Positions 7,851-31,887 of a DNA stretch of 64,000 bases are shown here, piece by piece. The translations under genes and the position numbers were made by a program. The notes under the pieces were generated by a model. It was given only the letters and a program-made list of their open reading frames with translations. It was not told the origin of the DNA and did not search any database. How positions within the stretch are numbered: the first letter of the stretch is position 1; each line of letters starts with the position of its first letter. This DNA comes from Nemertoderma westbladi (lineage: Eukaryota > Animalia > Xenacoelomorpha), in the NCBI GenBank assembly GCA_032718475.1, contig JAUCBJ010008084.1, forward strand, positions 7,586-71,585, given 5' to 3'.

Positions 7851-8259
7851 CTGTTCGCGGTATTTCAACTTTTCATAACGCGAGTTGAATATTTTTTGTA
7901 TTTATTAAAAACGATTATTCCGATATCACTACTGGGTGCGGGACCATGGGTTTTGGGCACATTCTATAAACTGGGGGCGATTTATGGGCGAACTTTGGGG
8001 CGACTTACAGGGAACGGGACTAATTTCATGTTTATAAGGGCCAGGGGGGATGGAAAATTCAAGCAGTATTCAGGTTAGCCTGATTACTATTAGGCCCTGG
8101 CCAACTTCCTGCTGCCTGTAGAGGTGGATTTGGTAACGTGCCAGGCCTAAAGGACAAGGACTGCTCTTAGCAGTCCCTGGCCAACAGCAGTTATTACGAG
8201 CCTGAAAAGGACATCGGAACGCCAGCTGCTTGCGTCAGGGATTTGCGACGGGAAACGAC

Positions 8260-9268
8260 AGCCCCCTTAGCCAAGCCGTGTACTGGTTCTCGATGACCGA
8301 TCCCTTCGGGGTTCGCGAGGGGTGGGACGGACACGCGAAAGGGCGGCCGACTTACAGAGGAAGGGTTTGACAAGGACTGCCCTTAGCGGTCTCTGGTCAA
8401 CAGCAGTTATTACGAGCCTGAAAAGGACATCGGAACGCCGGCTGCTTGTACCAGGGATTTGCGACGGGAACTGACGACAGACCCCTTAGCCAAGCCGTAC
8501 TGGTTCTCGATGATCGTTCCCTTCGGGGTTCGTGAGGGGTGGGACGGACACGCGACGGGGTCGAAAGACAAAGGACTGGACTCTACTGGCCTACCGACTG
8601 TTCGGAGCAGTTTCTCGGCTGCCGAAGCGACTACGAGCCTGAAAGGGACTCGGAAAGCCTAGGTGGTTGGGTTTCTGCGATGAACCGACGGACCCCTAGC
8701 CAAGCCGTACTGGTTCTCGATGATCGAGCCCTTCGGGGTTCGGGAGGGGTGGGACGGACACGCGAACGGGTCCACCGACACGACAGACTCCTAGCCAAGC
8801 CGTACTGGTTCTCGATGACCGATCCCTTCGGGGTTCGAGAGGGGTGGTACGGATACGCGACAGAGTCTACCGACTGGACCGACCCTTAGCCAAGCCGTGC
8901 TGGTTCTCGATGATCGTTCCCTTCGGGGTTCGTGAGGGGTGGGATGGACACGCGACGGGGTCGAAAGACAAAGGACTGGACTCTACTGGCCTACCGACTG
9001 TTCGGAGCAGTTTCTCGGCTGCCGAAGCGACTACGAGCCTTAAAGGGACTCGGAAAGCCTAGGTGGTTGGGTTTCTGCGATGAACCGACGGACCCCTAGC
9101 CAAGCCGTACTGGTTCTCGATGATCGAGCCCTTCGGGGTTCGGGAGGGGTGGGACGGACACGCGAACGGGTCCACCGACACGACAGACTCCTAGCCAAGC
9201 CGTACTGGTTCTCGATGATCGATCCCTTTGGGGTTCGGGAGGGGTGGAACGGACACGCGACAGGGTCG
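8260..9268 (+). repeat. Seven copies of an ~80-nt structured hairpin module inside the LTR, including a 400-bp tandem duplication (8481-8880 / 8881-9270)
   Basis: TAGCCAAGCCGTACTGGTTCTCGATGAN5CCCTTCGGGGTTCGNGAGGGGTGGGACGGACACGCGA, with GATGA at 8292, 8509, 8719, 8814, 8909, 9119 and 9214. Confidence 0.9.
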
Positions 9269-9453
9269 ACCGACACCGACACTACGGCATCAAGACTAGG
9301 ACCGAGGGAAAATCTGGGGAACATTAGTTAGGCTAAAATCTGAGCGAACAGTGGGTAATTAAATAATATACTGTAGGGATTTATATTGTCGTGTATAATT
9401 ATTGTGAATATTTGGTGTATATTGATTTGGGGAAGCCCAAAATTACTCTCAAT

Positions 9454-9681: not shown

Positions 9682-12600
9682 GATAGTTAACACATGTCAC
9701 AAGATTATGCAGGATACTAAAGGAGCAGGTTATAGAGGCGGGTAGATAGAACCAAAACAATAAACGATAGTTAACACATGTTGCAAGATTATGCAGGTTA
9801 GTACAGGAGCAGACTATAGAGGCGGGAAGATAGAATCAAAACAATAAACGATAGTTAACACATGTTACAATATTATGCAGGTTAGTAAAGAAGCAGGCTA
9901 TAGAGGCGGGTAGATAGAACCAAAACAATAAACGATAGTTAACACATGTTACTAGATTATGCAGGTTAGTAAAGCAGCAGGTTATAGAGGCGGGTGGATA
10001 GAACCAAAACATTAAACGATAGTTTAACACATGTTACAAGATTATGCCGGTTAGTAAAGGAGCAGGTTATAGAGGCGGGTAGATAGAACCAAAACAATAA
10101 ACGATAGTTAACACATGTTACAAGATTATGCAGGTTAGTAAAGGAGCAGGTTATAGAGGCGGGTAGATAGAACCAAAACAATAAACGATAGTTAACACAT
10201 GTTACTAGATTATGCAGGTTAGTAAAGCAGCAGGTTATAGAGGCGGGTGGATAGAACCAAAACATTAAACGATAGTTTAACACATGTTACAAGATTATGC
10301 CGGTTAGTAAAGGAGCAGGTTATAGAGGCGGGTAGATAGAACCAAAACAATAAACGATAGTTAACACATGTTACAAGATTATGCAGGTTAGTAAAGGAGC
10401 AGGTTATAGAGGCGGGTAGATAGAACAAAACAGTAAACGATAGTTAACACATGTTACAAGATTATGCAGATTAGTAAAGGAGCAGGTTATAGATGCGGGT
10501 AGATAGAACCAAAACAATAAACGATAGTTAACACATGTTACAAGATTATGCAGGATAGTAAAGGAGCAGACTATAGAGGCGGGAAGATAGAACCAAAACA
10601 TTAAACGATAGTTAACACATGTTACAAGATTATGCAGGTTAGTAAAGGAGCAGGCTATAGAAGAGGGTAGATAGAACCAAAACAATAAACGATAGTTAAC
10701 ACATGTTACAAGATTATGTAGGTTAGTAAAGGAGCAGGTTATAGAGGCGGGTAGATAGAACCAAAACAATAAACGATAGTTAACACATGTTACAAGATTA
10801 TGCAGGTTAGTAAAGGAGCAGGCTATAGAAGAGGGTAGATAGAACCAAAACAATAAACGATAGTTAACACATTTTACAAGCTTATGTAGGTTAGTAAAGG
10901 AGCAGGTTATAGAGGCGGGTAGATAGAACCAAAACAATAAACGATAGTTAACATATGTTACAAGATTATGCAGGTTAGTAAAGGAGCAGGTTACAGAGGC
11001 AGGTACATAGAACCAAAACAATAAACGATAGTTAACACGTGTTACTAGAATATGCAGGTTAGTAAAGGAGCAGGTTATAGAGGCGGGTAGATAGAACGAA
11101 AACAATAAACGATAGTTAACACATGTTACAAGATTATGCAGGATAGTAAAGGAGCAGGTTATAGAGGCGGGTAGATAGAACCAAAACAATAAACGATAGT
11201 TAACACACGTTACAAGATTATGCAGGTTAGTAAAGGAGCAGGTTATAGAGGCGGGTAGATAGAACCAAAACAATAAACGATAGTTAACATATGTTACAAG
11301 ATTATGCAGGTTAGTAAAGGAGCAGGTTACAGAGGCGGGTAGATAGAACCAAAACAATAAACGATAGTTAACACACGTTACAAGATTATGCAGGTTAGTA
11401 AAGGAGCAGGTTATAGAAGAGGGTAGATAGAACCAAAACAATAAACGATAGTTAACACACGTTACAAGATTATGCAGGTTAGTAAAGGAGCAGGTTACAG
11501 AGGCGGGTAGATAGAACCAAAACAATAAACGATAGTTAACACATGTTCCAAGATTATGCAGGATAGTAAAGGAGCAGGTTATAGAGGCGGGTAGATAGAA
11601 TCAAAACAATAAACGATAGTTAACACATGTTACAAGATTATGCAGGTTAGTAAAGCAGCAGGTTATAGAGGCGGGTAGATAGAACCAAAACAATAAACGA
11701 TAGTTAACACATGTTCCAAGATTATGCAGGATAGTAAAGGAGCAGGTTATAGAGGCGGGTAGATAGAACCAAAACATTAAACGATAGTTAACACATGTTC
11801 CAAGATTATGCAGGATAGTAAAGGAGCAGGTTATAGAGGCGGGTAGATAGAACCAAAACAATAAACGATAGTTAACACAGGTTACAAGCTTATGCAGGTT
11901 AGTAAAGGAGCAGGTTATAGAGGCGGGTAGATAGAACCAAAACAATAAACGATAGTTAACATATGTTACAAGATTATGCAGGTTAGTAAAGGAGCAGGTT
12001 ATAGAGGCGGGTAGATAAAACCAAAACAATAAACGATAGTTAACATATGTTACAAGATTATGCAGGTTAGTAAAGGAGCAGGTTACAGAGGCAGGTACAT
12101 AGAACCAAAACAATAAACGATAGTTAACACGTGTTACTAGAATATGCAGGTTAGTAAAGGAGCAGGTTATAGAGGCGGGTAGATAGAACCAAAACAATAA
12201 ACGATAGTTAACACATGTTCCAAGATTATGCAGGATAGTAAAGGAGCAGGTTATAGAGGCGGGTAGATAGAACCAAAACAATAAACGATAGTTAACACAT
12301 GTTACAAGCTTATGCAGGTTAGTAAAGGAGCAGACTATAGAGGCGGGAAGATAGAACCAAAACAATAAACGATAGTTAACACATGTTACAATATTATGCA
12401 GGTTAGTAAAGGAGCAGACTATAGAGGCGGGAAGATAGAATCAAAACAATAAACGATAGTTAACACATGTTGCAAGATTATGCAGGTTAGTAAAGGAGCA
12501 GACTATAGAGGCGGGTAGATAGAACCAAAACAATAAACGATAGTTAACACATGTTACAAGATTATGTAGGTTAGTACAGGAGCAGGTTATAGATGCGGGT

Positions 12601-15600
12601 AGATAGAACCAACATAATAAACGATAGTTAACACATGTTACAAGATTATGCAGGTTAGTAAAGCAGCAGGTTATAGAGGCGGGTGGATAGAACCAAAACA
12701 TTAAACGATAGTTTAACACATGTTACAAGATTATGCCGGTTAGTAAAGGAGCAGGTTATAGAGGCGGGTAGATAGAACCAAAACAATAAAAGATAGTTAA
12801 CACATGTTACAAGATTATGCCGGTTAGTAAAGGAGCAGGTTATAGAGGCGGGTAGATAGAACCAAAACAATAAACGATAGTTAACATATGTTACAAGATT
12901 ATGCAGGTTAGTAAAGGAGCAGGTTATAGAGGCGGGTAGATAGAACCAAAACAATAAACGATAGTTAACACATGTTACAAGATTATGCCGGTTAGTAAAG
13001 GAGCAGGTTATAGAGGCGGGTAGATAGAACCAAAACAATAAACGATAGTTAACACATGTTCCAAGATTATGCAGGATAGTAAAGGAGCAGGTTATAGAAG
13101 AGGGTAGATAGAACCAAAACAATAAACGATAGTTAACACATGTTACAAGATTATGCCGGTTAGTAAAGGAGCAGGTTATAGAGGCGGGTAGATAGAACCA
13201 AAACAATAAACGATAGTTAACACATGTTACAAGATTATGCAGGTTAGTAAAGGAGCAGGTTATAGAGGCGGGTAGATAGAACCAAAACAATAAACGATAG
13301 TTAACACATGTTATAAGATTATGCAGGTTAGTAAAGAAGCAGGCTATAGAGGCGGGTAGATAGAACCAAAACAATAAACGATAGTTAACACATGTTATAA
13401 TATTATGCAGGTTAGTAAAGAAGCAGGCTATAGAGGCGGGTAGATAGAACCAAAACAATAAACGATAGTTAACACATGTTATAAGATTATGCAGGTTAGT
13501 AAAGAAGCAGGCTATAGAGGCGGGTAGATAGAACCAAAACAATAAACGATAGTTAACACATGTTATAAGATTATGCAGGTTAGTAAAGAAGCAGGCTATA
13601 GAGGCGGGTAGATAGAACCAAAACAATAAACGATAGTTAACACATGTTACAAGATTATGTAGGTTAGTAAAGGAGCAGTTATAGAGGTGGGTAGATAGAA
13701 CCAAAACAATAAACGATAGTTAACACATGTTACAAGATTATGTAGGTTAGTAAAGGAGCAGTTATAGAGGTGGGTAGATAGAACCAAAACAATAAACGAT
13801 AGTTAACACATGTTATAAGATTATGCAGGTTAGTAAAGAAGCAGGCTATAGAGGCGGGTAGATAGAACCAAAACAATAAACGATAGTTAACACATGTTAT
13901 AAGATTATGCAGGTTAGTAAAGAAGCAGGCTATAGAGGCGGGTAGATAGAACCAAAACAATAAACGATAGTTAACACATGTTACAAGATTATGCAGGATA
14001 GTAAAGGAGCAGGTTATAGAGGCGGGTAGATAGAACCAAAACAATAAACGATAGTTAACAGATGTTACAAGATTATGCAGGTTAGTAAAGGAGCAGGTTA
14101 TAGAGGCGGGTAGATAGAACCAAAACAATAAACGATAGTTAACACATGTTACAAGATTATGTAGGTTAGTAAAGGAGCAGTTATAGAGGCGGGTAGATAG
14201 AACCAAAACAATAAACGATAGTTGACACATGTTACAAGATTATGCAGGTTAGTAAAGGAGCAGACTATAGAGGCAGGTAGATAGAACCAAAACAATAAAC
14301 GATAGTTAACACATGTTACAAGATTATGCAGGATAGTAAAGGAGCAGGTTATAGAGGCGGGTAGATAGAACCAAAACAGTAAACAATAGTTAACACATGT
14401 TACAAGATTATGCAGGTTAGTAAAGGAGCAGACTATAGAGGCGGGAAGATAGAACCAAAACAATAAACGATAGTTAACACATGTTATAAGATTATGCAGG
14501 TTAGTAAAGAAGCAGGCTATAGAGGCGGGTAGATAGAACCAAAACAATAAACGATAGTTAACACATGTTATAAGATTATGCAGGTTAGTAAAGAAGCAGG
14601 CTATAGAGGCGGGAAGATAGAACCAAAACAATAAACGATAGTTAACACATGTTATAAGATTATGCAGGTTAGTAAAGAAGCAGGCTATAGAGGCGGGTAG
14701 ATAGAACCAAAACAATAAACGATAGTTAACACATGTTATAAGATTATGCAGGTTAGTAAAGGAGCAGGTTATAGAGGCGGGTAGATAGAACCATAACATT
14801 AAACGATAGTTTAACACATGTTACAAGATTATGCCGGTTAGTAAAGGAGCAGGTTATAGAGGCGGGTAGATAGAACCAAAACAATAAACGATAGTTAACA
14901 CATGTTACAAGATTATGCCGGTTAGTAAAGGAGCAGGTTATAGAGGCGGGTAGATAGAACCAAAACAATAAACGATAGTTAACATATGTTACAAGATTAT
15001 GCAGGTTAGTAAAGGAGCAGGTTATAGAGGCGGGTAGATAGAACCAAAACAATAAACGATAGTTAACACATGTTACAAGATTATGCCGGTTAGTAAAGGA
15101 GCAGGTTATAGAGGCGGGTAGATAGAACCAAAACAATAAACGATAGTTAACACATGTTCCAAGATTATGCAGGATAGTAAAGGAGCAGGTTATAGAAGAG
15201 GGTAGATAGAACCAAAACAATAAACGATAGTTTAACACATGTTACAAGATTATGCCGGTTAGTAAAGGAGCAGGTTATAGAGGCGGGTAGATAGAACCAA
15301 AACAATAAACGATAGTTAACACATGTTACAAGATTATGCCGGTTAGTAAAGGAGCAGGTTATAGAGGCGGGTAGATAGAACCAAAACAATAAACGATAGT
15401 TAACATATGTTACAAGATTAAGCAGGTTAGTAAAGGAGCAGGTTATAGAGGCGGGTAGATAGAACCAAAACAATAAACGATAGTTAACACATGTTACAAG
15501 ATTATGCCGGTTAGTAAAGGAGCAGGTTATAGAGGCGGGTAGATAGAACCAAAACAATAAACGATAGTTAACACATGTTCCAAGATTATGCAGGATAGTA

Positions 15601-18462
15601 AAGGAGCAGGTTATAGAAGAGGGTAGATAGAACCAAAACAATAAACGATAGTTAACACATGTTACAAGATTATGCCGGTTAGTAAAGGAGCAGGTTATAG
15701 AGGCGGGTAGATAGAACCAAAACAATAAACGATAGTTAACACATGTTACAAGATTATGCAGGTTAGTAAAGGAGCAGGTTATAGAGGCGGGTAGATAGAA
15801 CCAAAACAATAAACGATAGTTAACACATGTTATAAGATTATGCAGGTTAGTAAAGAAGCAGGCTATAGAGGCGGGTAGATAGAACCAAAACAATAAACGA
15901 TAGTTAACACATGTTATAATATTATGCAGGTTAGTAAAGAAGCAGGCTATAGAGGTGGGTAGATAGAACCAAAACAATAAACGATAGTTAACACATGTTA
16001 TAAGATTATGCAGGTTAGTAAAGAAGCAGGCTATAGAGGCGGGTAGATAGAACCAAAACAATAAACGATAGTTAACACATGTTATAAGATTATGCAGGTT
16101 AGTAAAGAAGCAGGCTATAGAGGCGGGTAGATAGAACCAAAACAATAAACGATAGTTAACACATGTTATAAGATTATGCAGGTTAGTAAAGAAGCAGGCT
16201 ATAGAGGTGTGTAGATAGAACCAAAACAATAAACGATAGTTAACACATGTTACAAGATTATGCAGGATAGTAAAGGAGCAGGTTATAGAGGCGGGTAGAT
16301 AGAACCAAAACAATAAACGATAGTTAACACATGTTACAAGATTATGCAGGTTAGTAAAGGAGCAGGTTATAGAGGCGGGTAGATAGAACCAAAACAATAA
16401 ACGATAGTTAACACATGTTACAAGATTATGTAGGTTAGTAAAGGAGCAGTTATAGAGGCGGGTAGATAGAACCAAAACAATAAACGATAGTTGACACATG
16501 TTACAAGATTATGCAGGTTAGTAAAGGAGCAGACTATAGAGGCAGGTAGATAGAACCAAAACAATAAACGATAGTTAACACATGTTACAAGATTATGCAG
16601 GATAGTAAAGGAGCAGGTTATAGAGGCGGGTAGATAGAACCAAAACAGTAAACAATAGTTAACACATGTTACAAGATTATGCAGGTTAGTAAAGGAGCAG
16701 ACTATAGAGGCGGGAAGATAGAACCAAAACAATAAACGATAGTTAACACATGTTATAAGATTATGCAGGTTAGTAAAGAAGCAGGCTATAGAGGCGGGTA
16801 GATAGAACCAAAACAATAAACGATAGTTAACACATGTTATAAGATTATGCAGGTTAGTAAAGAAGCAGGCTATAGAGGCGGGAAGATAGAACCAAAACAA
16901 TAAACGATAGTTAACACATGTTATAAGATTATGCAGGTTAGTAAAGAAGCAGGCTATAGAGGCGGGTAGATAGAACCAAAACAATAAACGATAGTTAACA
17001 CATGTTATAAGATTATGCAGGTTAGTAAAGGAGCAGGTTATAGAGGCGGGTAGATAGAACCATAACAATAAACGATAGTTAACACATGTTACAAGATTAT
17101 GTAGGTTAGTAAAGGAGCAGTTATAGAGGCGGGTAGATAGAATCAAAACAATAAACGATAGATAACACATGTTACTAGATTATGCAGGTTAGTAAAGGAG
17201 CAGGTTATAGAGGCGGGTAGATAGAACCAAAACAATAAACGATAGTTAACACATGTTACAAGATTATGCAGGTTAGTAAAGGAGCAGGTTATAGATGCGG
17301 GTAGATAGAACCAACATAATAAACGATAGTTAACACATGTTACAAGATTATGCAGGTTAGTAAAGGAGCAGGTTATAGAGGCGGGTAGATAGAACCAAAA
17401 CAATAAACGATAGTTAACACATGTTACAAGATTATGCAGGTTAGTAAAGGAGCAGGTTATAGAGGCGGGTAGATAGAACCAAAACAATAAACGATAGTTA
17501 ACACATGTTACAAGATTATGTAGGTTAGTAAAGGAGCAGTTATAGAGGCGGGTAGATAGAATCAAAACAATAAACGATAGATAACACATGTTACTAGATT
17601 ATGCAGGTTAGTAAAGGAGCAGGTTATAGAGGCGGGTAGATAGAACCAAAACAATAAACGATAGTTAACACATGTTACAAGATTATGCAGGTTAGTAAAG
17701 GAGCAGGTTATAGATGCGGGTAGATAGAACCAACATAATAAACGATAGTTAACACATGTTACAAGATTATGTAGGTTAGTAAAGGAGCAGTTATAGAGGC
17801 GGGTAGATAGAATCAAAACAATAAACGATAGATAACACATGTTACTAGATTATGCAGGTTAGTAAAGGAGCAGGTTATAGATGCGGGTAGATAGAACCAA
17901 CATAATAAACGATAGTTAACACATGTTACAAGATTATGCAGGTTAGTAAAGGAGCAGGATATAGAGGCGGGTAGATAGAACCAAAACAATAAACGATAGT
18001 TAACACATGTTACAAGATTATGCCGGTTATTAAAGGAGCAGGTTATAGAGGCGGGTAGATAGAACCAAAACAATAAACGATAGTTAACCACATGTTACAA
18101 GATTATGCAGGATAGTAAAGGAGCAGGTTATAGAGGCGGGTAGATAGAACCAAAACAATAAACGATAGTTAACACATGTTACAAGATTATGCAGGATAGT
18201 AAAGGAGCAGGTTATAGAGGCGGGTAGATAGAACCAAAACAATAAACAATAGTTAACACATGTTACAATATTATGCAGGTTAGTAAAGGAGCAGGTTATA
18301 GAGGCGGGTAGATAGAACCAAAACAATAAACGATAGTTAACACATGTTACAAGATTATGCAGGTTAGTAAAGGAGCAGGCTATAGAAGAGGGTAGATAGA
18401 ACCAAAACAATAAACGATAGTTAACACATGTTACAAGCTTATGTAGGTTAGTAAAGAAGCAG
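9682..18462. repeat. 84-bp satellite array, left arm (about 105 monomers)
   Basis: Consensus GTTAACACATGTTACAAGATTATGCAGGTTAGTAAAGGAGCAGGTTATAGAGGCGGGTAGATAGAACCAAAACAATAAACGATA, head-to-tail. Confidence 0.98.
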
Positions 18463-18971
18463 TGTTAGCTTATTCAATTCCGCTAACACAAACCCATAAA
18501 GTAAGCCGTTAAGCAATATTGGGGGCCACGAGGTTGATTACCCAATCTCGTGCCACCCCAATAAAATGGGAAGGAGAAACACACAATAAGGGTCAGGGGC
18601 CACACCCCTGACCGAGAGAGAATAGCAGGAGTGAGGGAAACACTCCAAAGGGCGCCAACAGGGATATCAGCCAATGGGAGGGAGGCACCGGCTAGGTACA
18701 GTAACAAGGCCAACCCGTGCAATATAACCAGTTAACGGTAATCAGTTATTTCAGTTATCTCATTGTGTTGGTCGGTTTAGTTAGGTTAGGACCGGAACTT
18801 TAATTACCGTTGCGTAACCACTGTGCAGACACCCTATTCTATATCTATACTATTATACCGGAGGACTTTATACAGCAATCAACAATATCCACCTTTTACA
18901 CACACACGGCGGGAACGCGACGCGTAAATCAAAAACCGGATAAACCGGGATCCTTTGTGGATCCCGTCACA
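18463..18971 (+). repeat. 5' LTR of element 2
   Basis: TGTTAGC...GTCACA; near-identical to 31888-32396 (three substitutions seen by eye). Confidence 0.97.
18721..18757 (+). promoter_or_regulatory. Candidate LTR core promoter (TATA-like AATATAA followed by Inr-like TCAGTT)
   Basis: AATATAA at 18721-18727 and TCAGTT at 18751-18756, about 30 nt apart. Motif match only. Confidence 0.4.
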
Positions 18972-19039
18972 GTAATTAAAGACCAACCTAGTAATTAAAT
19001 CCTAGAACTCCAGCCAGCTACCGACACTCTACCTATGAG

Positions 19040-22000
19040 ATGAGCGACGTTACGCCAACGCGGACCCCGGAGGAAGACCCAACGATTCGGGAGGCCGTGA
19101 CCAGACGGTATAGGCCCACGACGCCGGACCCATCGGTAACGGGTCATCCGGCAGATCAGGATGGAGGGGACCGTCTGGAACCAGAGATCGAGCCGAGAGG
19201 AGCGGGAGCCGAGTTGGGAGAAGGAGAGGGCGAGAGGGACGGAGAAGAAGATGAGTCGACACGGAACTAGGGTCGACGTACCGATGTCGCCGGCCAGCCA
19301 CAGGCCGTGGGCGACGAACGGCCCACCGAAACGGCGACGGTGGGGCCGACGGTACGACGCCGGACCCGGAGAGATGGGGGAGATGTCGGTACCGATGTTG
19401 CCGGCCAGCTACAGGCCGAGGGCGACGGACGGCCCACCGGAACGGCGACGGTGGGGCCACCGGTACGACGTCGGACCCGGAGAGACGGAGGAGAGGTCGG
19501 CGACGAGGACGTCGGGGTTTCTGATCGACTTCGACGGGCCTACAACGCGACCCGGAAGCTACTTAAGGAGGCCAAGGAGGGGGCGAAGATAGATGAGGTA
19601 AAGCTGACAACAGGACTAGGTGAGTTGGATAGACATTTTAATTATCTAATGCGCTTCGGGCAGAGAGAACTGGCCAAGGAGAGAGCGAGAGGGGTTGCAG
19701 AGGAACTGTGTGATTTATGGCGGTGTAGGGGTATGCAACCTAGTGCAGTGTATGTAGGGCCATACTTAGTCGATGCCCAGGGTATAAAATCAGTGGGTTG
19801 GAGGAGACATGAGGAGGGCGAATCCGAGGTTGACCGCGAGGATTCGATCTCGTCGATCGGAGGAAGTTCTGGGAAGAGGGGGAAAGTTAGTAGGTCGGGA
19901 AGGCGGAGGGAATCCGTCGTAACCGATAAGTCTGCTACATCCTCCGTAAAAGAAAGACGGGTGAGAGAGATAAATGCCACGTACCATCTCGACCTGATTG
20001 CGCAAGGTCAGAGAGAGTTATGTAGATGGTTAGAGGAGGGGAGAATGCAACTAGAGAAGGAAATGGTACTGATTAGAGAAACCGGAGAGAGGGCCGAAAG
20101 GGCCGCGAAAAGCCTTAGAGAGTGTGAGGAAATAGAGAGGAGGGAACAAGAGGAGCGTGAGGCGAGACGGGAAAGTGAACGCAAAGAGCGTGAGGCGGAA
20201 CGCAAGGAGCGTGAGACGAGAGAGAACAATGAACGCAAGGAACGCGAGGCGAGAGAGGAAAATGAACGCAAGGAACATGAGGCGAGGGAGGAAAGTGAGC
20301 GCAAAGAGCGTGAGGCGAGGCGAAGGGAGGGAGCTAGGAGAGAGGCGGAATTGGCCGAACAGAACGCACGGGAGAGTCGGGAGAGAATGGCAAGAGAGGT
20401 GCGTGAGCGAAAAGAATTGGAAAGACAGCAAGGCGAGCTTATAGAGTACAAAACTAGACGTATGCGCGAACTGGAACTAGCGTGGATGGGGGCGTCTGAG
20501 AGCGGGGCTGACTCGAAGATTTTCGAGGAGCCAAGGGCCGTGGATATGTTTATTAATACCCCATTTACAGGGACCGCACGACAGACCCGAAATTGGTGTG
20601 ACCGTACGGGCCGGGGGGGTAATAATAATACTACAGTAGACGACGTTAATATTAATGGTACCGTATTGGATAATCCTAACCAAGCATATATTGCAGGAAA
20701 TACTTTGCCTGGTAGTAGTGATTTGAATTTAAACACAAATAATCTAAATAATAATTTCAATTTAAACGTGCAAAATAATCCGAATAATAATTTAAATTTA
20801 GAAAATAATGATAACTCAAATAATTTAAATAATGATCCAAGCCCGAATTTACAAAATAATTCAAATAATGTAGTCGCGCAAAATAATCAAAATGATTCTA
20901 TTTCGAACGAACAAAATAATTCCGTTTCTAACACAGGTGCTATTAATGCGAACGCGTCGGACGTGTATAACCCGACAGACGCCGGCCTGGTAGGCCACGT
21001 AGTTAGTAGGCAGGAGGTGGCGGGGTTGAGTCGACCCGACGGCGGCCTAGTAGGCCACGTAGTTAGTAGGCAGGAGGTGGCGGGGTTGAGTCGAGCCGAC
21101 GGCGGCCTGGTAGGCCACGTAGTTAGTAGGCAGGGGGTGGCGGGGTTGAGCCAACCCGGAGTAGGCCCGATAGGCCAAGTAGTGGTGGAGAGAGAGGCGG
21201 GGGTAAGCGAACCCAGCCGCAGTAGAAATATTGTGTCGACTGGAGAGGGGTGTAGAAGAGAAGTTAGTGGCAAGTGGGGGGGGGGGGCTACAGGAGCCCC
21301 GCAACGAGAAGTTAGCGACGAGTGGGGGGGGGCTACAGGAGCCCCACAACGAGAAGTTGGTGGCGAGGGGGGGGGCAGAGAATGTCCCACAGGCGTCGGC
21401 GGATAATGCGCGGGCCGAATCAGGTAAACCGCAACACCCGGCGACGGAGAGTAATAGGGGGATTGCGAGTATCCCCAGCGGCGTGCGATCGAGCAGAGAG
21501 AGGCAGGTTGATGTCGCGAGAGGGCGGACGAAGCGTCGAGCCCGATCAGAAGAGGGAAGAAGAACAGTGGAGTTTAACCGGGAGGTCGACGAGAGATCTC
21601 ATGAGCGGGAATACTGCACTGAAAGGAGAAGTAGTAGAAGAAGTATCGCCGCGAATGACAGGAGAGCGAGGACGGATAGCGAGCCGTCGGTAGTTGAGAT
21701 GGAAAGAGAGAGTCGGTGGGGTCGAACCTCGGGAGATTGCCGTCGTCCCGGAGAGACGCAACCTGACGAGACGCGTTACGCGTCGAGAGAGGGGTACACG
21801 ATGTACCAGCACGAAGACGAGAGTAGTAGAGGGGGTCGAAGAGAAACTTTCCGACGGGATATACCTACAGATCGAGAGTACGGTAGCCGCGGGGAGGATT
21901 GTTCGAGAAGAATAAACTTCGATCCCGAGCAACACATACAGACTGTAGGACATACTGTAGGCCTTACTGCACATACCATAGGCCATGCTGACAGGAATAA

Positions 22001-22280
22001 TATAGGCGATAGGATAGCGCGGACAATGGAATTAAACCCGGATGTCGCGGAGTACATACCGGCAGGTAGGCCAGAAGTTGATAGGCCTATACCGGTACCA
22101 GTACAGCAGTATGACTACAGCATGCAAGGACATAACATATACCCAGGGGAGGGGGGAATTATTGCGGATAGATGCATGGGCCCCAATATATTAACATCAA
22201 CCCCAGTACCAAACATACCGGTGGGGGGGGGGGACAGGGTGACATTCCCCCATCGCAATATCAACAATATACCCCGATAG
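19040..22280 (+). pseudogene. gag: Long low-complexity N-terminal extension of gag, interrupted
   Basis: ATG at 19040; in-frame TAG at 19268-19270 then ORF 19307..21406 in the same frame. Overlapping ORFs 21231..22280 and 22172..27571 join across poly-G runs (about 21276-21375 and 22223-22233). Contains an E/R coiled-coil, an Asn-rich tract, and ~117-, 60- and ~40-bp internal repeats. Confidence 0.65.
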
Positions 22281-25200
22281 GAGCAAGAACAACGAGACCC
22301 TTGGATGGAAATAGGTCATGTGACACAGAAATATGGAGGGGACTGCTACCCCCAATGATATACCCAAGCCAAAGAAAGGCAGAAAATAGGTCGGGTGGAC
22401 CACACCCAACAGGAGAAACTATACAACATCCATCGAATCCATTGGAAGCGCAGGCGATGGGGATGGCCATGTTGATCGATGCATTAAAAACAAGGATCGA
22501 ATTACCACCCGTGGAACCATTAAAATTCGATGGGAGTAGGCCGGAAGAATATCTCCAGTTTCGGCGTATGTATAGTAACGAAATACTAACAAAGAACTTG
22601 ACGCAAGCGGAGTGCCTAAAGTATCTGCAAGTATACACAGGAAGCCCAGCATACGACATCGTGAGGCAATATCAGGGCATAGAGGGCGGCTTCACGACGG
22701 CATGGTGGGCACTGGACAGGGAATACGGGCACCCGGCCAAGATCATCAGGCAGACCCTGAGAGGCATAACATCGGGTGGCCTACAGGATAACCCCGTTAG
22801 CATTAAGACATTCGCGAACAAGGTCGAGAAGGAGCTAATCGTGTTAAAGACGCTAGACGCGCCATACGAACTCAACGCGTCCAACAACATCACCACGATA
22901 GCGCAGGCACTACCGATGTGGTTGCGCAACAAGTGGAGGAAAATCGCTTTCTCCACTCGAGATAGGAAGGGTGCGGAACCGGGTTTAGAAGAAATGTCAA
23001 GCTTCTTAAACTACGAAGCTGAACTAATAACCGACCCAGTCTATAGCGAAGATAGCCTGGGAAAGGGATCGAAGACAGATTACCATAGACCGAAACCAGA
23101 GCACAATACGTCAAATGCATTACCGAAGCTCAGGCAATCACTGCCATATGCAGCGACGCAGGGGACTGCAAGTCCACAGGTAGCCGAAGGAAAGACCACA
23201 CCATGGAACGGACAGGGGAACAATAACAATACGAATAAATATAATCCCAGTACGTCCAGTAGGCCGAACCCAAACAATAAGAATAGTAGGGACTTTGGTA
23301 CAAACGCAGCTGCGATACGCAATGCACTGTATAAGGACGGCTACGACCCAAAGAGCAAATGCCAGCTACATACAAATGCGCTTCATCAAACCATGAACTG
23401 CAGGTACTGGCAAGCGCTACCCAGGGAAGATCAGGTAGAATACGCGGCGAGGAATGAGATCTGCTCGCGATGTGTGATGAGTGGACATAGAGCTAGGCAA
23501 TGCAAGGAGACGCCGGTCAAGTTCGGTCAAAGGAAAGGCCAAACGATGGCAACGAGCACAGTAGGGGCGAGGAAGACAGGAACGGTGCTACTTGGGGTAG
23601 TACCTGTGCGAGTGATTGGAGAAGGCAATCGATCAGTAACAACACTAATGCTGGTCGATAGTGGAGCTGCCTTCACATTAGTCGAGGATTGGGTGGCCGA
23701 AGAAATAGGATTGAGAACGAGGCCAAGTAGAATGGCGGTAACAACCATCTCCAGTAAAGATGAGGTCCTGGAGATGAGAACCGGACGGTGCACCATCGCA
23801 GCAATAGCACCAGGATGCGACTATGGGGCGAGCATCGACCCCATCCAAGTGATAGAGTCAATAAACATCAATGCCAGACGGCCAACCAACATCGAGGTCG
23901 AACAATATACATTTCTGGATGATATCGACTTCTCAATCCCAGAGGTGGACATTAGGAAGGTATCCATCATAGTAGGAATGGACTGCCCAACAGCCCACGA
24001 AAGAATGCAAATGGTCTTCGGCGAAGACAAGCAGTGTGACCCGGTGGCGATACTGACACCATTCGGGTGGACGCTGAGTGGCCCAATCAAGAGCAAGATA
24101 CCATTTAGGATGTCGGAGACATCAGGATGCATGTTCGCGGGAACTATGCAGGAAATGGGTGACGAGAGAGCAGAGGAGCAGCTTAAGAGACTGCTCAGAC
24201 AGGATTTTGAAGGATTAAAGGAGATCGGGGTCGGGACCTCGGTAGAAGACAAGCAGGCTCTACAGAGCGTAGAGGAGTCTATGAGGTGTGATGAGGGGCG
24301 GTATACCATAGGGATGGTATGGAAGCTACCAAAGCTACCGCTACCCGATAATAGAGGGATGGTACTCACGAGGCTTCGTAAGTTGAAGCAGACACTAAAA
24401 CGGAGCCCCGAGAAGAATGAGTACATCCACAGAATGATTAAGAAGTACGTCGAGAAAGGATGGGCCGTGGAGTTACCGGTCGACAAACCAAACACGGATA
24501 GGACGTATTACCTACCACTCCACGTGGCTTTAGATCCGAAGAAAGGTAAACTGCGGATGGTAGTTGACGCATCGGCAAAGACCAACGGAAAATGCTTAAA
24601 CGACTACCTACTAGAAGGTCCGAACATATACAACTCAGGGATAGAGGTCCTACTTAGATTTAGAAATGGGAAACACGCCTCCACGTGTGACATAGAAGGC
24701 ATGTTCAACCAAGTCCGTGTAACGGAGGAAGATAGCGACAGTCAACGCTTCTTATGGTACAACGGTGATGAAGAACCGTCAATAATACCGACGTACAAGA
24801 TGGTAGTACAGAACATGGGAGCCAAGTCGTCTTCATTCACGACGACTATGGCAGTAAGAGATACAGTGAAGGGGAAGGAGGATAGATACAGCACTAGGGC
24901 CGTCGATATGATTCGACGCGGCTTCTACGTAGACGATGGAATGGAGTCTGGAAATACGGTTAAGGAGATACTGGACACAGTGCGCGAGGTTCGCGACATC
25001 CTAAAAGGCTCCGGCTTTAACCTGACCAAATTCCAATCCAGTTCGAAGGAATTTATCAAGGCGATAGGGGACGAGAGACCAGAATCGACTATGGATAATC
25101 CCACAACGTCCAAAGGACAGGACATGGCGAGCAAGAGGACAGAATCTCAACAGAAGGCACTGGGAATCGTGTGGAACAGAGAGACAGATGAACTGGAGTA

Positions 25201-27571
25201 CCAGCTGAGCCAGGAGGGCGCAGACATCCACACAAAGAGAGGCTATGTGTCATACATAGCAAGAATATACGATCCCCTAGGTCTAGCATCCCCACTATTA
25301 GTTACGGGGAAGCAGATACTCAAGAGAGTATACAAACTGAAGGATGAGTGGGACGTAGAGGTACCAGAGGAGATCAAGAAACAGTGGTGTAAGTGGACAG
25401 AAGGCTTGGAGAAGATGGGAACATACAACATGCCGCGAGTGTATTTCCTGGATGGGAACATGACGAATCTGGACTTACACATGTTCTCCGATGCGTCGTT
25501 GGAGGCGTACGGAGCGGCATTCTATTTAATACAACGAGAGGGGGCTCACAAGCCCAGACTGGCCTTTAGCAAAGCTAAGTCAACACCGCCAGATTCAGCA
25601 TCAGTTCCCAAATTAGAATTGACAGCTGCCAGACTAGGAGTTAGGGCCACAGCCTACCTAGTGGATACTATTCCCAACATAGTGGAGACACACTACTGGA
25701 CGGATTCCATGGTAGTGCTTGGTTGGCTACATAACAAAAGGACGAGATACCCTATATTCGTCGCGAATAGGGTGGACAAAATAAGGGCGACCACAGAATT
25801 GGAAAGGTGGCACTACTGCCCGATGGACGAGAACCCAGCGGACTTGTTATCAAGGGGCGTGGCACGCCACACTTTCTTAAAAAAGGAAGGATTGTGGCAA
25901 CACGGGCCGCAGTTTCTGAGCGACAAGGAGGCGTGGCCGCCGATGAGAAAGGTGGACCCGGGCTCAGGAGAGGTAGTGTCAGAAGGAGAAGAGGGAGATT
26001 CAGAGGGAGAAGAGATATACTCCCAGATGGTGAGGGAGATAAGGGACGTGCAACCTAAACCAGAAGAACTGTGCGATAACCCGACGGATAAACTCCTCAG
26101 CTACAGCTCTAGTTGGTATAAGACCAAGAAATTAGTGGCGTACTGGAGAGCCTTCGGGAATTTCCTCGCGGGAGTTGGCAAAGGCAAGAAGATCAGGGCA
26201 ACAATAGATCTGGAAGAAGCGGCCAAAGCAGTAATCCGCTATGAACAACGGAAGAGCTATGGCGACGAGGTGGAACGCGTCGTTAAACAACAGCATCTCA
26301 GACGGGATAGCGAGTTGATCACGCTGTCACCACAACTTAATGACGACGGGATTCTAGTAATGAATTCTAGGGTGGGATACGACAACAGCATAATCGTACC
26401 ACCGAAACCCATCATCATTCCTACAGGATCGCCAATAGTCCACCAGATTATCTGGGACTCCCACAAGTCGATATTGCACGGGGGCACCAACCGAACCCTT
26501 ACGGAGATACGGAGGACCTTGTGGGTCAAGCAGTTGAGGAAGAAGGTAAAAGCAGTAGTGGGGCAGTGCCAGACCTGCCGACGAGCGAAGAAGGAGCGAG
26601 CCATACAAGAGATGGAACCACTACCAGCGAGTAGAGTAAGACAGCACGACCCGCCATTTACACATTGCGGTGTGGACATGTTCGGGCCGATAAAGATCAA
26701 GGTGATGCGGCACACAGAGAAACGCTACGGTATTATCTTCGTATGTAACAACATGCGGGCGGTAGGGATAGAACTCGCCCAAGATGCAACCGCATCAGCA
26801 TTTATTAATGCATTAGAAAGGTTCAGAGACCGCAAAGGTGGGACGATCGCAGTAATGTACTCCGACAGCGGAACCAACTTTGTGGGAGCAGAGAACGAGA
26901 TGGCAGAGGCCTTGGACATCTTGGAAGGGGAGGAAGTCAGGGCAGCCATGAGACGGCGACAAGTAAAGTGGGAGAGAAGGACGCCGTATGTACCACATAC
27001 ACTAGGATGCGTCGAGAGACTGGTGGGCAGTTCGAAGCGTCTCATGACGAAGTTAATGAACACCCACATGGTCACGGAGGACGTCTTGAGAACAGTACTT
27101 GCGAAGTGCGAGGGTATCATTAATAGCAGACCGCTATATCCGGAGAATGATGACCCTGAGTCATTAGATGTGCTGACGCCCAGCCATTTTCTAATGGAAA
27201 GGCCAGCGACCATCGATATGCGGGGTGTAGACCCAGATGACATACACTCCCGCCAGAGTTGGAAGGTCGCTAAAGCGATAAGCGCAGAGTACTGGAGAAG
27301 GTGGGTTGAGGAATACCTACCCACGCTTCACAAAAGAAGCAAGTGGAGGAAGTCGAATAGGGGGTTAAGAGAGGGAGATCTCGTAATCGTTACGGATGAT
27401 ACTATCATCAACAACCAGTGGCGGTTGGCGAGAGTTGTAGGCACTCACTCCGATGAGGATGGAAGAGTCCGATCGGTAGAAGTGCGGATAGGGGGCAAGA
27501 TAGGTGCGAAAGACAGAAAAACCTACAGGAGAGCTGTAGGGAAATGCTGTCTATTAGAAGGGGCACCTTAG
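22172..27571 (+). CDS. gag-pol: BEL/Pao gag-pol polyprotein (capsid-like DUF1759-type region, zinc knuckles, aspartic protease, RT, RNase H, integrase)
   Basis: KFDGSRPEEY; CQLH..H...C and CSRC..GH....C; LVDSGA; YLPLH; RMVVDAS; DIEGMFNQV; FYVDDG; FSDAS; PKLEL; WTDS; NPADLLSRG; HGG..CQTC; GVDMFGP; SDSGTNFVG; INSRPL; LTPSHFL. Open for 1799 aa; the true start is probably upstream. Confidence 0.95.
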   Translation: MHGPQYININPSTKHTGGGGGQGDIPPSQYQQYTPIGARTTRPLDGNRSCDTEIWRGLLPPMIYPSQRKAENRSGGPHPTGETIQHPSNPLEAQAMGMAMLIDALKTRIELPPVEPLKFDGSRPEEYLQFRRMYSNEILTKNLTQAECLKYLQVYTGSPAYDIVRQYQGIEGGFTTAWWALDREYGHPAKIIRQTLRGITSGGLQDNPVSIKTFANKVEKELIVLKTLDAPYELNASNNITTIAQALPMWLRNKWRKIAFSTRDRKGAEPGLEEMSSFLNYEAELITDPVYSEDSLGKGSKTDYHRPKPEHNTSNALPKLRQSLPYAATQGTASPQVAEGKTTPWNGQGNNNNTNKYNPSTSSRPNPNNKNSRDFGTNAAAIRNALYKDGYDPKSKCQLHTNALHQTMNCRYWQALPREDQVEYAARNEICSRCVMSGHRARQCKETPVKFGQRKGQTMATSTVGARKTGTVLLGVVPVRVIGEGNRSVTTLMLVDSGAAFTLVEDWVAEEIGLRTRPSRMAVTTISSKDEVLEMRTGRCTIAAIAPGCDYGASIDPIQVIESININARRPTNIEVEQYTFLDDIDFSIPEVDIRKVSIIVGMDCPTAHERMQMVFGEDKQCDPVAILTPFGWTLSGPIKSKIPFRMSETSGCMFAGTMQEMGDERAEEQLKRLLRQDFEGLKEIGVGTSVEDKQALQSVEESMRCDEGRYTIGMVWKLPKLPLPDNRGMVLTRLRKLKQTLKRSPEKNEYIHRMIKKYVEKGWAVELPVDKPNTDRTYYLPLHVALDPKKGKLRMVVDASAKTNGKCLNDYLLEGPNIYNSGIEVLLRFRNGKHASTCDIEGMFNQVRVTEEDSDSQRFLWYNGDEEPSIIPTYKMVVQNMGAKSSSFTTTMAVRDTVKGKEDRYSTRAVDMIRRGFYVDDGMESGNTVKEILDTVREVRDILKGSGFNLTKFQSSSKEFIKAIGDERPESTMDNPTTSKGQDMASKRTESQQKALGIVWNRETDELEYQLSQEGADIHTKRGYVSYIARIYDPLGLASPLLVTGKQILKRVYKLKDEWDVEVPEEIKKQWCKWTEGLEKMGTYNMPRVYFLDGNMTNLDLHMFSDASLEAYGAAFYLIQREGAHKPRLAFSKAKSTPPDSASVPKLELTAARLGVRATAYLVDTIPNIVETHYWTDSMVVLGWLHNKRTRYPIFVANRVDKIRATTELERWHYCPMDENPADLLSRGVARHTFLKKEGLWQHGPQFLSDKEAWPPMRKVDPGSGEVVSEGEEGDSEGEEIYSQMVREIRDVQPKPEELCDNPTDKLLSYSSSWYKTKKLVAYWRAFGNFLAGVGKGKKIRATIDLEEAAKAVIRYEQRKSYGDEVERVVKQQHLRRDSELITLSPQLNDDGILVMNSRVGYDNSIIVPPKPIIIPTGSPIVHQIIWDSHKSILHGGTNRTLTEIRRTLWVKQLRKKVKAVVGQCQTCRRAKKERAIQEMEPLPASRVRQHDPPFTHCGVDMFGPIKIKVMRHTEKRYGIIFVCNNMRAVGIELAQDATASAFINALERFRDRKGGTIAVMYSDSGTNFVGAENEMAEALDILEGEEVRAAMRRRQVKWERRTPYVPHTLGCVERLVGSSKRLMTKLMNTHMVTEDVLRTVLAKCEGIINSRPLYPENDDPESLDVLTPSHFLMERPATIDMRGVDPDDIHSRQSWKVAKAISAEYWRRWVEEYLPTLHKRSKWRKSNRGLREGDLVIVTDDTIINNQWRLARVVGTHSDEDGRVRSVEVRIGGKIGAKDRKTYRRAVGKCCLLEGAP

Positions 27572-27679
27572 ATCGTTTGTTAGAAGGGAGTTTAGTCGTC
27601 CAAGTTTGGACTGAGGGGGGTGGGATTGAGGGCGAAGCGCCCTTCCCACACATAAAATAAAAATAAAATAAATAAAAAT

Positions 27680-28400
27680 TAGAGTTAGTTAGTTAGTTAG
27701 AACTTACGTAGTACCGGTGGTTAGTAGAGTTGGGAGTTAGTTAGAAGGTACGTAGTACCTAGAGTTAGTTAGTTAGTTAGTTAGGAATTAGCTACAAGGT
27801 ACGTAGTACCTAGAGCTAGTTAGTTAGTTAGGAGTCAATTAGAAGGTACGTAGTACCTAGAGTTAGTTAGTTAGTTAGTTAGGAGGTACGTAGTACCGAG
27901 AGTTAGGAGTCAGTTAGTTAGAGGTGTTAGAGAAGTAGTAAGAGGGTACGTAGTACCGGTGGTTAGTAGAGTTAGAGGTTAGTAAGAGGGTACGTAGTAC
28001 CGGTGGTTAGTAGAGTTAGAGGTTAGTAAGAGGGTACGTAGTACCGGTGGTTAGTAGAGTTAGAGGTTAGTAAGAGGGTACGTAGTACCGGTTAGTAAGA
28101 GTAGAGTTGGAAGTTAGTAAGAGGGTACGTAGTACCGATAGTTAGTGGAGTAGTTAGAGGGTACGTAGTACTGTTAGTTAGAGAGTAGTAAGAGGGTGCG
28201 TAGTACCATTAGTGGAGTTAGAGTAAGAGTTAGAGGGTACGTAGTACCGTTAATTAGGGAGAGAGAGTAAGAGTTAGAGGGTTCGTAGTACCGCTAGTTA
28301 GGGAAAGAGAGTAAGAGTTAGAGGGTACGTAGTACCGCTAGTTAGTTAGAGGTTAGTAAGAGGGTACATAGTACCGATTAGTAAGAGATAGAGGTAGAAG
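27680..28400 (+). repeat. Irregular tandem array with a GGTACGTAGTACC core and (GTTA)n/purine-rich spacers
   Basis: About 16 copies of the GGTAC-GTA-GTACC inverted core, spaced roughly 35-60 bp apart. Confidence 0.9.
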
Positions 28401-28815
28401 GGTATATATAGTATAGATATTAGTCAGTAGTTAGTAGCGAGAGGGGGGCATATGAGTACAGTTGGATAGATCGTGTAGGCCACGCGACATATACTGCTGT
28501 ACTGCACAGGCCCATAGAGTAGGTCAGAATGTGGATTATGGAATAGAATAATCCATAAACAGTAAAGTAGTAGAATTAAGTTAAATCAAAATAAATAGAA
28601 TAAATAGGGCTAAAAAATTACAGATTATGGTAACAGCAGGGAAATTATTCTGGAACATAATTAAAGAAACGGACAGAAATTGTAAATTAGGGTACATTTC
28701 TTAGCTACAGAATTAAGTAATAGAAATTTAGGCTAAAAGGCGTAGTTAGATAGGAAATAGGCCATTCTCGAACTGTACAGACCATCAGAAACTTATCACT
28801 CATCTGTATTGCGCC

Positions 28816-31237
28816 TTGGTAAGGCACCTGGTCGGGACCTACGGGACGCCGTCGCTGGACAACGCGATCTTCCAACACTTCCACTACGTGGTGAAAGGGG
28901 ACGAGGCGAAGTTCGGGATTCCGAAGTACCCGAGGGAGTCGCCGAAGAAGGATTGGAAGAGGTTTATAGAGTCCATCAACAGGGGAGGATATATGATCCT
29001 AGACGACGAGGGAACCGTGGAAGACGAGGAGGGTTCGAGACGAGGATCAGCAGGGTCGGCCAGGACCATACTCCTACATTTGGCCGCGCCAAATGGGGAC
29101 ATTTTCTTATTCGACCTAGGAACGTATGGGAAAAAGGACGGGCCAAAATTAAACCGGTTGCCGAAAGCGGTGCAAGTCCTGGTAAGAGAGAAGTCGACGA
29201 CGAAAGTGGGATCGGCGATTCGCGAGGACGCGGAGAGAATCATCGGTCCGGACGCCACCAACCTTCTGGATATGCAGAAGGTCTTCATGGCTATGACAGC
29301 ACCAGACGGGTTGGGAGTAGTCGGGAACACAGGTCAATGCGGAGCGGTGGCAATGGGCCAGCTATTGGGGCTCGTATGCCACAATCCGATGGACTGGGGG
29401 AAGTTCAGGGAGGATTACGGAGCAGAACTAGCGAACTCGCTAAAGTGGGGAGCGAGACTGGGAAGGCAAGAGGTGTATCAATTCCGCAGAGGAGCAATAA
29501 AGGTATATCAGAAGCGATATATCCTGCAGGAAGATTGGATAATGATAAGTTTGCTCAACTTATTCATGACCGTGGTTATCGAGAGGGAACCAGCGGCATT
29601 TCTGTTATCGGGATCACCCCTAAGCTACAGGAGAGCCTTTAAGACGGCCTTCGACAGTCTGGTAGACCACCCGGGGCTGAAGGGCAAGTCGGTGTACTAC
29701 AACAGCCGACATCTGATAGACGGGTAGATAGATACGCCGTATCAGAGATGGGAGCAGCTAGAGACGGATAGACGAGAGGCAAAGCGACTGGAAGAAGTCG
29801 CGAGACGGGAAAGGATAGAAGCAGAGGAGAGGGAGGAGGAGGCCAGGACGCAGAGTTACGGCTTCGAGGAACAGGCAGGCTTAGACGAACTTCGTTGGAC
29901 TTCATCAGGGACTTCGGGGGAGTCTCTAGGGCGAGAACTGGGATGGACGGTGGGATCGCCGAAACCGTCGACGTTGGGGTTGCAAGCGATGCCCATACCA
30001 GCGGGCGCCGAAGGCGACCAACCGCTAAGGAAGTTAGGGGAGCTAGAGGGATGGAGAGCTACGGGCGAGAGCCAAGGCGGGAAGGGACATAGTGGATCCA
30101 TCGGGATACCGGGGTTGGAGCCACTGCCAGAGGAGGACGAAGACGACGACGAGTTCGGAGAGATGCCGCCCATCGAGAGGATTGGCCACTCGGACACGGA
30201 CTGGGTTGGCGGGAGGGTGGTGACGGCCAGTGGGGCGAGGGCCTTCTGGGATAGACCCGGCAAGCAGGCCTGGGTGCACGAGGAGCCGGCGATGGATTTC
30301 GCGTGGAGCACTATCAGGTTGGGCGAGCAACCAGGGACGGCACCACGGGTAGTATTCGGGGAGACGATGCCCGAGAGGGGCGAGGAGATCGACGTAGACA
30401 GGGACACTAACATGCAGAAGTTCGCCTACCAGCGACTCCACAGACCGCGGAGATCGCTTGGGACGAAAGACGACGTGGGGCGGGAGACATTGGTACTCGG
30501 TTGCGATTACTGTGGGAGACAGACCCACCAGGAAAGGAGCTGTTTGTACCGATTCCAAAAGGGGACCTTTTGTCTCTACTGCCGCGAGTCGAGCCACAGG
30601 ATGGGGGCGTGTCCACGGTTGCATAACCGATGTCCGAAGTGTAACTTTCGGGGACACTATGGACGACGAAGAGAAGTTCAGAACCTTCGAGGAGTGGGCC
30701 GACGTCGGGGCCATGACGCGGCAGCGCATGAAGGCCCAGGAGTTCAAGTGGGGTTTCTTCCTTATCAATCAGGAGGCTCACTTGGAAATTATAAAGCGGA
30801 GGTTACCGTTTACCTATCAAGAGGTAGCAACGGCGGCGTCGTATGCCGGAGTGATAAATACACAAAGGTATTTGGACAGGTGGACGCCACAGAACCGAGG
30901 GGAGTTTAGGGATTTCCTGGCGGAGCACGTGCCGCGGGCAATGAAGATGATCTTATGGGACGCCACCAGGGGGAGACAACAGGGCCACTTGGAGGGGTCA
31001 CCCGCGAAGCGATATCGGGAGCTGATAACACCAGCACCCAAGGAGCCAACGACCGGGATCAGTAAGGGTCCGAAGACAGAAAGCGGATCCCAGAGGAGCG
31101 GTAGTGACCAGGAAACGACCCAGGGAGGAGGACGGCAAAGGGAAAGACTTGAGGTGGTTCCCAAAGTCAGGGGGGATGAACTGAGACTTCAATGTGGTAC
31201 GCCTGGAAGGCGCCACGTGGGACGTACGAACTATTAA
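28816..31237 (+). pseudogene. Accessory ORF homologous to 5194..7677 (DEDD exonuclease and zinc knuckles), disrupted
   Basis: ORFs 28816..29727 and 29950..30909 are in frame across TAG 29725-29727; a frameshift near 30658 leads into ORF 30458..31237. Motifs MILDDEG, LPKAVQVLV...KVGSAIRED, LDMQ, YILQED; CDYC..H....C, CLYCRESSHRMGACP.L...CPKCNFRGH; FEEWAD...TRQR...WGFF. Confidence 0.8.
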
Positions 31238-31878: not shown

Positions 31879-31887
31879 GGGGGGGAG
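31879..31887 (+). other. Polypurine tract of element 2
   Basis: GGGGGGGAG directly 5' of the 3' LTR. Confidence 0.9.

Follow-up and report, generated by a model that had tools for sequence, protein, structure and literature searches.

A 13.9-kb LTR retrotransposon (element 2) occupies positions 18463-32396, from LTR to LTR, of the window, by which we mean the whole 64-kb stretch of Nemertoderma westbladi DNA analyzed here; features lie on the plus strand unless stated otherwise. The element is an insertion within an array of 84-bp satellite units and is flanked on both sides by a 5-bp target-site duplication, AGCAG (18458-18462, inside a satellite unit, and 32397-32401). Its 509-bp LTRs (18463-18971 and 31888-32396) begin with TG, end with CA and are 99.4% identical, with three differences at 18472, 18894 and 18924. 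The 5' LTR contains a TATA-like TATAA (18723-18727), 30 nt before the A at 18753 and presumably part of a promoter, two Inr-like TCAGTT motifs (18742-18756, A at 18744 and 18753) that presumably act as such, and a perfect 8-bp U5 terminal hairpin (18946-18966); a search of viral contigs with a hairpin pattern returned 0 matches. Low-complexity or coiled 5' ORFs in two frames (19271-21406 and 21207-22280), which gave no convincing Pfam match anywhere in 19271-22280, precede a long frame (22172-27571) for a polyprotein of 1799 aa. Its Pfam domains are DUF1759, an aspartyl protease, reverse transcriptase (RVT_1), Peptidase_A17 (2e-39), an Integrase_H2C2 zinc finger and DUF5641, i.e., a Pao-type set in PR-RT-RH-IN order. 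An additional, interrupted ORF region follows (ORF3; 28750-29727, 29728-30909 and 30398-31237) with an exonuclease-like N-terminal part and Cys/His knuckles, and a predicted 13-bp hairpin (31850-31878) and a polypurine tract (31880-31887) precede the 3' LTR. By its polyprotein, its LTRs, target-site duplication and polypurine tract, and the grouping of its RT with BEL/Pao sequences, element 2 is a BEL/Pao element (Belpaoviridae).

Element 2 shares with the Belpaoviridae (Semotivirus) the PR-RT-RH-IN order, the Pao-type domains, an LTR within the range of 0.2-1.2 kb and the polypurine tract (PMC8742986). However, it departs from the ICTV description of the family in its length (13.9 kb vs. 4.2-10 kb), in an exonuclease-like ORF3 in place of env, and in the lack of an 18-nt tRNA PBS, whereas the family is described as primed by host tRNA, with an 18-nt PBS for tRNA-Arg or tRNA-Gly (PMC8742986). 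Because the taxonomic placement rests on the polyprotein, the missing tRNA PBS is read as a departure in priming and not in taxon.

The satellite array that element 2 splits into a left (9682-18462) and a right part (32397-40167) comprises ~198 units (9682-40167) that are 91-95% alike, and the 330 bp preceding it are also highly repeated in sequencing runs of the host. Upstream of the array lies a putative 3' LTR (7852-9350) of a sister BEL element (element 1), the end of which is tentatively placed by a 7-bp terminal inverted repeat. It is followed by a PBS-like stretch (9351-9364) that shares GTAATTAAA with element 2 and has no partner in its own LTR. The 3' ORFs of both elements (5044-7677 in element 1, 28750-31237 in element 2) combine an exonuclease-like part with several Cys/His knuckles. 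Degenerate tandem repeats with periods of 95 and 400 bp occur after the pol of element 2 (27680-28400) and in the LTR of element 1 (8153-9281). Farther downstream, minus-strand fragments at 50426-51633 resemble, by eye, the C-terminus of a non-LTR (CR1/L2-type) reverse transcriptase, and the palindrome TACCGGTA has 10 sites in 24 kb (40200-64000), far above the expectation from base composition.

The first-pass annotation had drawn attention to the 5' LTR's junction with the leader of element 2, where it saw no tRNA PBS. Indeed, the first TGG past the LTR is found at 19162, 190 nt downstream. Mature tRNAs end in CCA, and with no TGG after the LTR a full-length tRNA primer is therefore excluded for element 2. 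The PBS position is instead occupied by GTAATTAAAG (18972-18981, offset 0 from the LTR), which is the exact complement of CTTTAATTAC at 18798-18807 in the LTR interior, our candidate self-primer, whose 3' end lies 164 nt from the LTR end. Within the 64 kb, CTTTAATTAC occurs solely there and in the 3' LTR copy (32223-32232). The pairing stops at the LTR boundary, where A18971 faces C18808, and at the other end A18982 faces A18797. The 10-nt complementarity, its termination at the boundary, the perfect LTR-end hairpin and a second GTAATTAAA at 18991 are all as first noted. This second 9-nt PBS core (18991-18999) sits in a small predicted CTAG/CTAG hairpin (18988-19005), the loop of which holds the palindrome TAATTA, like a dimer-initiation loop. 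The placement of the candidate primer 3' of the TATA- and Inr-like motifs also holds, but the Inr-like motif overlaps a splice-acceptor-like TTTCAG ending at 18754, and the TCAGTT/TTTCAG motif at this point has two possible readings, as Inr or as splice acceptor.

A self-primer has been defined, for working purposes, as a match of at least 10 bp that starts 0-5 bp past the LTR (PMC6317226, in the portion available), and the PBS-LTR match of element 2 falls within this definition. In 20,000 dinucleotide shuffles of the element 2 LTR, a complement of at least 10 nt appeared in 0.115% of the shuffled LTRs at offset 0 and in 0.26% at offsets 0-3 (P 0.001-0.003). Among the internal positions of element 2, 11 of 12,916 have a complement of at least 10 nt in the LTR. 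Rfam searches gave 0 matches at the gathering score over the whole window and three chance-level matches for the LTR alone, and ARAGORN found no tRNA in the 64-kb window.

A search based on a BEL alignment led to 77 metagenome loci with ~26-36% identity; a BEL alignment used against viral contigs gave 17 candidates, none of which was confirmed. In seven of the 77 loci the LTR end was fixed independently by two-LTR overlap. Six of these seven pair 10-15 nt of post-LTR sequence with their own LTR, with letters differing each time, L006 contiguously and L002, L004, L015, L049 and L072 solely across a GT-AG junction. The seventh, L024, has a TGG tRNA-type site. Of 13 loci tested for junction or contiguous partners, 10 attained a match of 10 nt, with L024, L038 (8 nt) and L068 falling short; L068 was matched later at another LTR end in a blind scan. 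That scan, for a PBS complementary to an exon junction, covered the 58 loci with a usable 5' flank (19 of the 77 being left out) and returned junction matches in 10/58 loci, vs. 0/58 on the reverse strand and 0/174 in three local shuffles. A looser version returned 12/58, vs. 1/58 and 5/58 in two controls; contiguous matches without a fixed LTR end proved to be noise in this looser scan (24 vs. 22 in the control) and were discarded. In a cross-test at a threshold of at least 10 nt, a PBS matched its own LTR in 14 of 16 cases and a foreign one in 2 of 240 pairs. Because four of the 14 LTR ends were picked via the match itself, the seven overlap-fixed loci and the blind scan carry the weight. 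Covariation, which the first-pass annotation had named as a check in other exonuclease-bearing BEL families, is present in these related families: PBS-LTR complementarity is kept with different letters.

Both tests combined, junction matches were found in 14 families (L002, L004, L009, L014, L015, L017, L032, L049, L053, L055, L067, L068, L071 and L072). The predicted LTR introns in these loci span 67-426 nt, their exon junctions exactly complement the PBS, and the first exon contributes only 4-9 nt. With only GT required of the donor, GTRAG was found at seven of the nine best donors, vs. a background of 41 among the 1264 GT sites of these flanks. In several families a TATA-like or T-rich motif lies ~30 nt upstream of the pyrimidine-A step at which the first exon starts. 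The distance from primer end to LTR end is 74-193 nt in 13 relatives and 164 nt in element 2, and the primer ends 3' in AC in 11 of those 13 and in element 2 too. We consider it probable that most families build a self-primer of 10-15 nt by splicing a tiny first exon across an intron within the LTR. A splice-junction primer was also sought in the LTRs of both window elements and was not found; with a contiguous partner and no junction match, element 2 represents the contiguous, intron-less form. Most relatives would likely assemble their primer by splicing the predicted LTR intron, with element 2 and L006 as ready-made contiguous variants. L053 pairs across a junction. In its relative L058 (267-290), the LTR end of which is not independently fixed, the candidate is 11 nt long and contiguous and shares its 3' half, but not its 5' half, with that of L053, a pattern suggestive of intron loss accompanied by covariation.

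An RT-RH tree of 102 sequences, rooted at the midpoint (L057 and L059 were dropped, and L018 and L054 are labeled from near-identical twins), shows elements 1 and 2 as sisters on long branches, their pol sequences being 32% identical. Both belong to a clade of 83 members (support 0.964) that includes all of the self-pairing loci, and L024 and L044, with sites of the TGG type, fall outside of it. The subclade is left unnamed, the tree having no named Sinbad, Suzu or Tas references.

Contigs from four public DNA runs of the host, representing at most three samples, were placed on the LTR and leader of element 2. Summed contig depth, which is not equivalent to copy number, is high over the terminal hairpin (18939-18966), remains considerable across 18967-18994 and drops to near zero across 18995-19022. 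Some contigs match the window as far as 18977-18980 and continue into a different leader, and others match it as far as 18810 before diverging; both partner sites consequently lie in blocks common to variants that differ just beyond. The 9-nt PBS core is common to contigs with different leaders, and one contig repeats it with a different spacer. A search among shorter proteins gave no close copy from the host, the best match having 34% identity. Within the element 2 family no compensatory change was observed: among the 40 variants listed (141 more lie beyond these), none falls in either site. An extended pairing of 16 nt via 18767-18773, with a 25-nt loop-out, was dropped, as the loop lacks the GT-AG form and other contigs part from the window beyond 18980.

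The best explanation for these observations, to which we assign a probability of about three in four, is that element 2 primes minus-strand synthesis with its own RNA in a Tf1-like manner. In the RNA of the element, transcribed from a predicted start site, 18798-18807 would fold back onto 18972-18981. The domain closed by this pairing would contain the U5 hairpin and, adjoining the primer, a predicted stem (18808-18815 with 18915-18922). If the RNA were then cut after 18807, a 3'-OH would be left on a 10-bp primer, and copying would begin at the final base of the LTR or next to it. By analogy with Tf1, the cutting enzyme would be the RNase H of the element itself. For the BEL/Pao clade as a whole, the proposed self-priming is well supported by comparative sequence evidence. 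The proposal of the first-pass annotation, a self-priming BEL lineage, stands insofar as the pairing is kept and the TGG loci fall outside the clade; its analogy with Tf1 is imperfect, because the predicted position of the primer is ~+46 to +55 instead of nt 1-11.

The start site is the weak point of the self-priming model, since the primer-PBS helix is near certain in a transcript from 18798 and has a probability of only 0.11 in one from 18753. The predicted start at 18753 (TATAA at 18723 plus the Inr-like motif) lies 45 nt upstream of the primer. In predicted folds of an RNA starting at 18798, the helix has a probability of 0.93-0.97. Its low probability with the 18753 start reflects an alternative pairing of 18804-18807, with 18924-18927; the paired fold then lies 1.2 kcal/mol above the minimum, and the extra 5' bases are predicted to pair downstream of the PBS. 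The LTR difference at 18924 falls in the helix that competes with the primer-PBS pairing. For either start the leader is more structured than its shuffles (z -3.9 and -3.6), and two near-equal folds are predicted. No AATAAA, the canonical poly(A) signal, occurs downstream of the predicted start within the LTR.

In Tf1, the PBS is paired with the first 11 nt of the transcript, and cleavage by RNase H falls between nt 11 and 12 (PMC7175516, in the portion available). Self-priming has been described for Tf1/Tf2/Tj1, Tf1/sushi and Tcn1 and predicted for plant TAR copia elements in the available portions of the literature (PMC6317226, PMC7175516, PMC4600332, PMC5341516, PMC6934838, PMC3601003). Like Tf1/Tf2 of S. 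pombe, Tj1 of S. japonicus, Tf1/sushi and Tcn1, element 2 has no tRNA PBS, and ~10-11 nt after the LTR complement a segment of the LTR; as in the Tf1 group, neighboring stems and a U5 hairpin are predicted. Element 2 is nevertheless not a member of Tf1/sushi, a Ty3/gypsy chromovirus group, as it has Pao domains and no chromodomain. Its primer is predicted at +46 to +55 and not at nt 1-11 as in Tf1, and the primer of most relatives spans a predicted splice junction, unlike Tf1 as described in the portions available. The plant Ty1/copia elements TAR, Houba and Osr-1 resemble element 2 in that self-priming was predicted for them by the same PBS-LTR criterion, although they belong to another superfamily and other hosts and are described without a splice-built primer (PMC6317226, in the portion available). 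In the literature accessible to us, including that on spliced leaders and several texts available in part, we found no published report of self-priming or of a splice-made primer in BEL/Pao; PMC3118150 and PMC554778 contain no occurrence of "PBS" or "tRNA". A further mechanism, different from that proposed for element 2, is self-provision of a tRNA-like molecule. The nematode element Cer7 reportedly encodes such a tRNA-like primer of its own.

A primer shared in trans would be an alternative to a primer made by each element for itself. It could be the 5' end of a nematode SL1-type spliced leader, added at the TTTCAG acceptor (18754), or the primer released from element 2 and used by other families, in which case the LTR copy would be a mimic or a back-up. 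A shared outside primer is hinted at by the recurrence of the same 9-nt core after the LTR of element 1, which has no partner in its own LTR. Positions 9352-9363 are complementary over all 12 nt to nematode SL1 (nt 3-14 of the sequence given in PMC7986045, in the portion available), the element 2 PBS matches 9 nt of the SL1 complement, and one host contig extends the 9-nt core by two C's, which would give 11 pairs with the leader. The LTR site of element 2 likewise has a 10-nt partner in the stretch that follows the element 1 LTR, and the junction at 9350 is multi-copy, its depth in the host runs showing no fall; it could be the trace of a non-autonomous derivative whose primer is supplied in trans. 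However, SL1 may not exist in the host, and in this copy the tenth PBS base of element 2 finds its partner in the LTR site instead of SL1. A variant at 9357, common in the host runs (from about one fifth of the depth to more than half of it, depending on the run), disrupts the 12-nt match, and the LTR end of element 1 is placed by the 7-bp inverted repeat only. Overall we consider a primer supplied in trans unlikely. Similarly doubtful, taken as a whole, is a wider scenario in which a large clade of animal BEL/Pao elements swapped tRNA priming for primers processed by host RNA machinery: most families would splice a tiny first exon across an LTR intron (by itself probable, as stated above), and in this host the exonuclease-bearing lineage would have moved beyond that, with one primer serving unrelated families in trans, possibly the 5' end of the host spliced leader.

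The PBS-LTR pairing could also act as a structural switch, for packaging, dimerization or the control of translation, and hide a site at which a host tRNA half or some other small RNA serves as primer. Priming by tRNA halves occurs in Copia-type elements (PMC6317226, PMC10886601, in the portions available), the leader is strongly structured (z -3.9) with two near-equal folds, and the palindromic core TAATTA could serve dimerization. Yet the many PBS sequences of the relatives each match their own LTR or junction, which a fixed set of tRNAs is unlikely to follow, and neither Rfam nor ARAGORN gave a match in the window, so that we regard a masking switch as quite improbable.

The first-pass annotation had further speculated that an exonuclease of the element is linked to priming, trimming the 3' end of an RNA (e.g., the 3' R end and its tail) back to the paired segment. 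Both window elements carry ORF3, DEDDy-type ORF3s are known in rotifer LTR elements, and the element 2 primer is not at the predicted 5' end. The bdelloid elements Juno and Vesta resemble element 2 in having an extra 3' ORF similar to a 3'-5' exonuclease (DEDDy), but they are not BEL, and the available portion of the source makes no link to priming under "PBS" or "self-prim" (PMC5408684). The identity of ORF3 itself is only a lead: in language-model features the ORF3 of both elements resembles, at 0.93-0.94, a cluster with PF01612 on 50% of its members, whereas sequence searches of Pfam, NCBIfam and PDB were all negative. The structure model of ORF3 has a pLDDT of 33, none of 1903 candidates from a protein database search qualified as a homolog at E 1e-4, and the ORF3s of elements 1 and 2 have no mutual BLASTP match. 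Across the relatives, tblastn of the ORF3 proteins against the 77 loci gave no match, and in the self-pairing ones the gap from pol to the 3' LTR is just 79-413 nt (15 of 16 measured together; L004 has 194 nt), no room for such an ORF; self-pairing is therefore independent of ORF3, and the proposed link is not supported. A transcript ending at the primer would, moreover, presumably yield strong-stop DNA lacking the R overlap for strand transfer. We consider exonuclease trimming very improbable.

A chance match in an AT-rich, partly palindromic 10-mer next to a decayed true PBS is the least probable reading, and although the core TAATTA is self-complementary and short complements occur elsewhere (the 11 of 12,916 positions), it is at odds with the P values at the fixed position, the 99.4% identity of the LTRs, the 9-nt core common to contigs with different leaders and the recurrence of the same architecture across the clade, and is largely refuted by the blind scan and the cross-test.

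If element 2 and its relatives do prime from their own RNA, this would be a third independent origin of self-priming, in a third LTR superfamily, the texts available to us placing it only in Ty3/gypsy (Tf1/sushi, Tcn1) and in certain copia elements of plants. Such a clade of BEL elements would evade tRNA-derived small RNAs as a means of control, and LTR finders whose scoring includes a tRNA PBS would call too few of its members. A splice-dependent primer in the relatives would couple the onset of reverse transcription to the spliceosome and would raise the question of how the intron survives replication. With its ready-made primer, element 2 offers a natural comparison case for its splice-built relatives.
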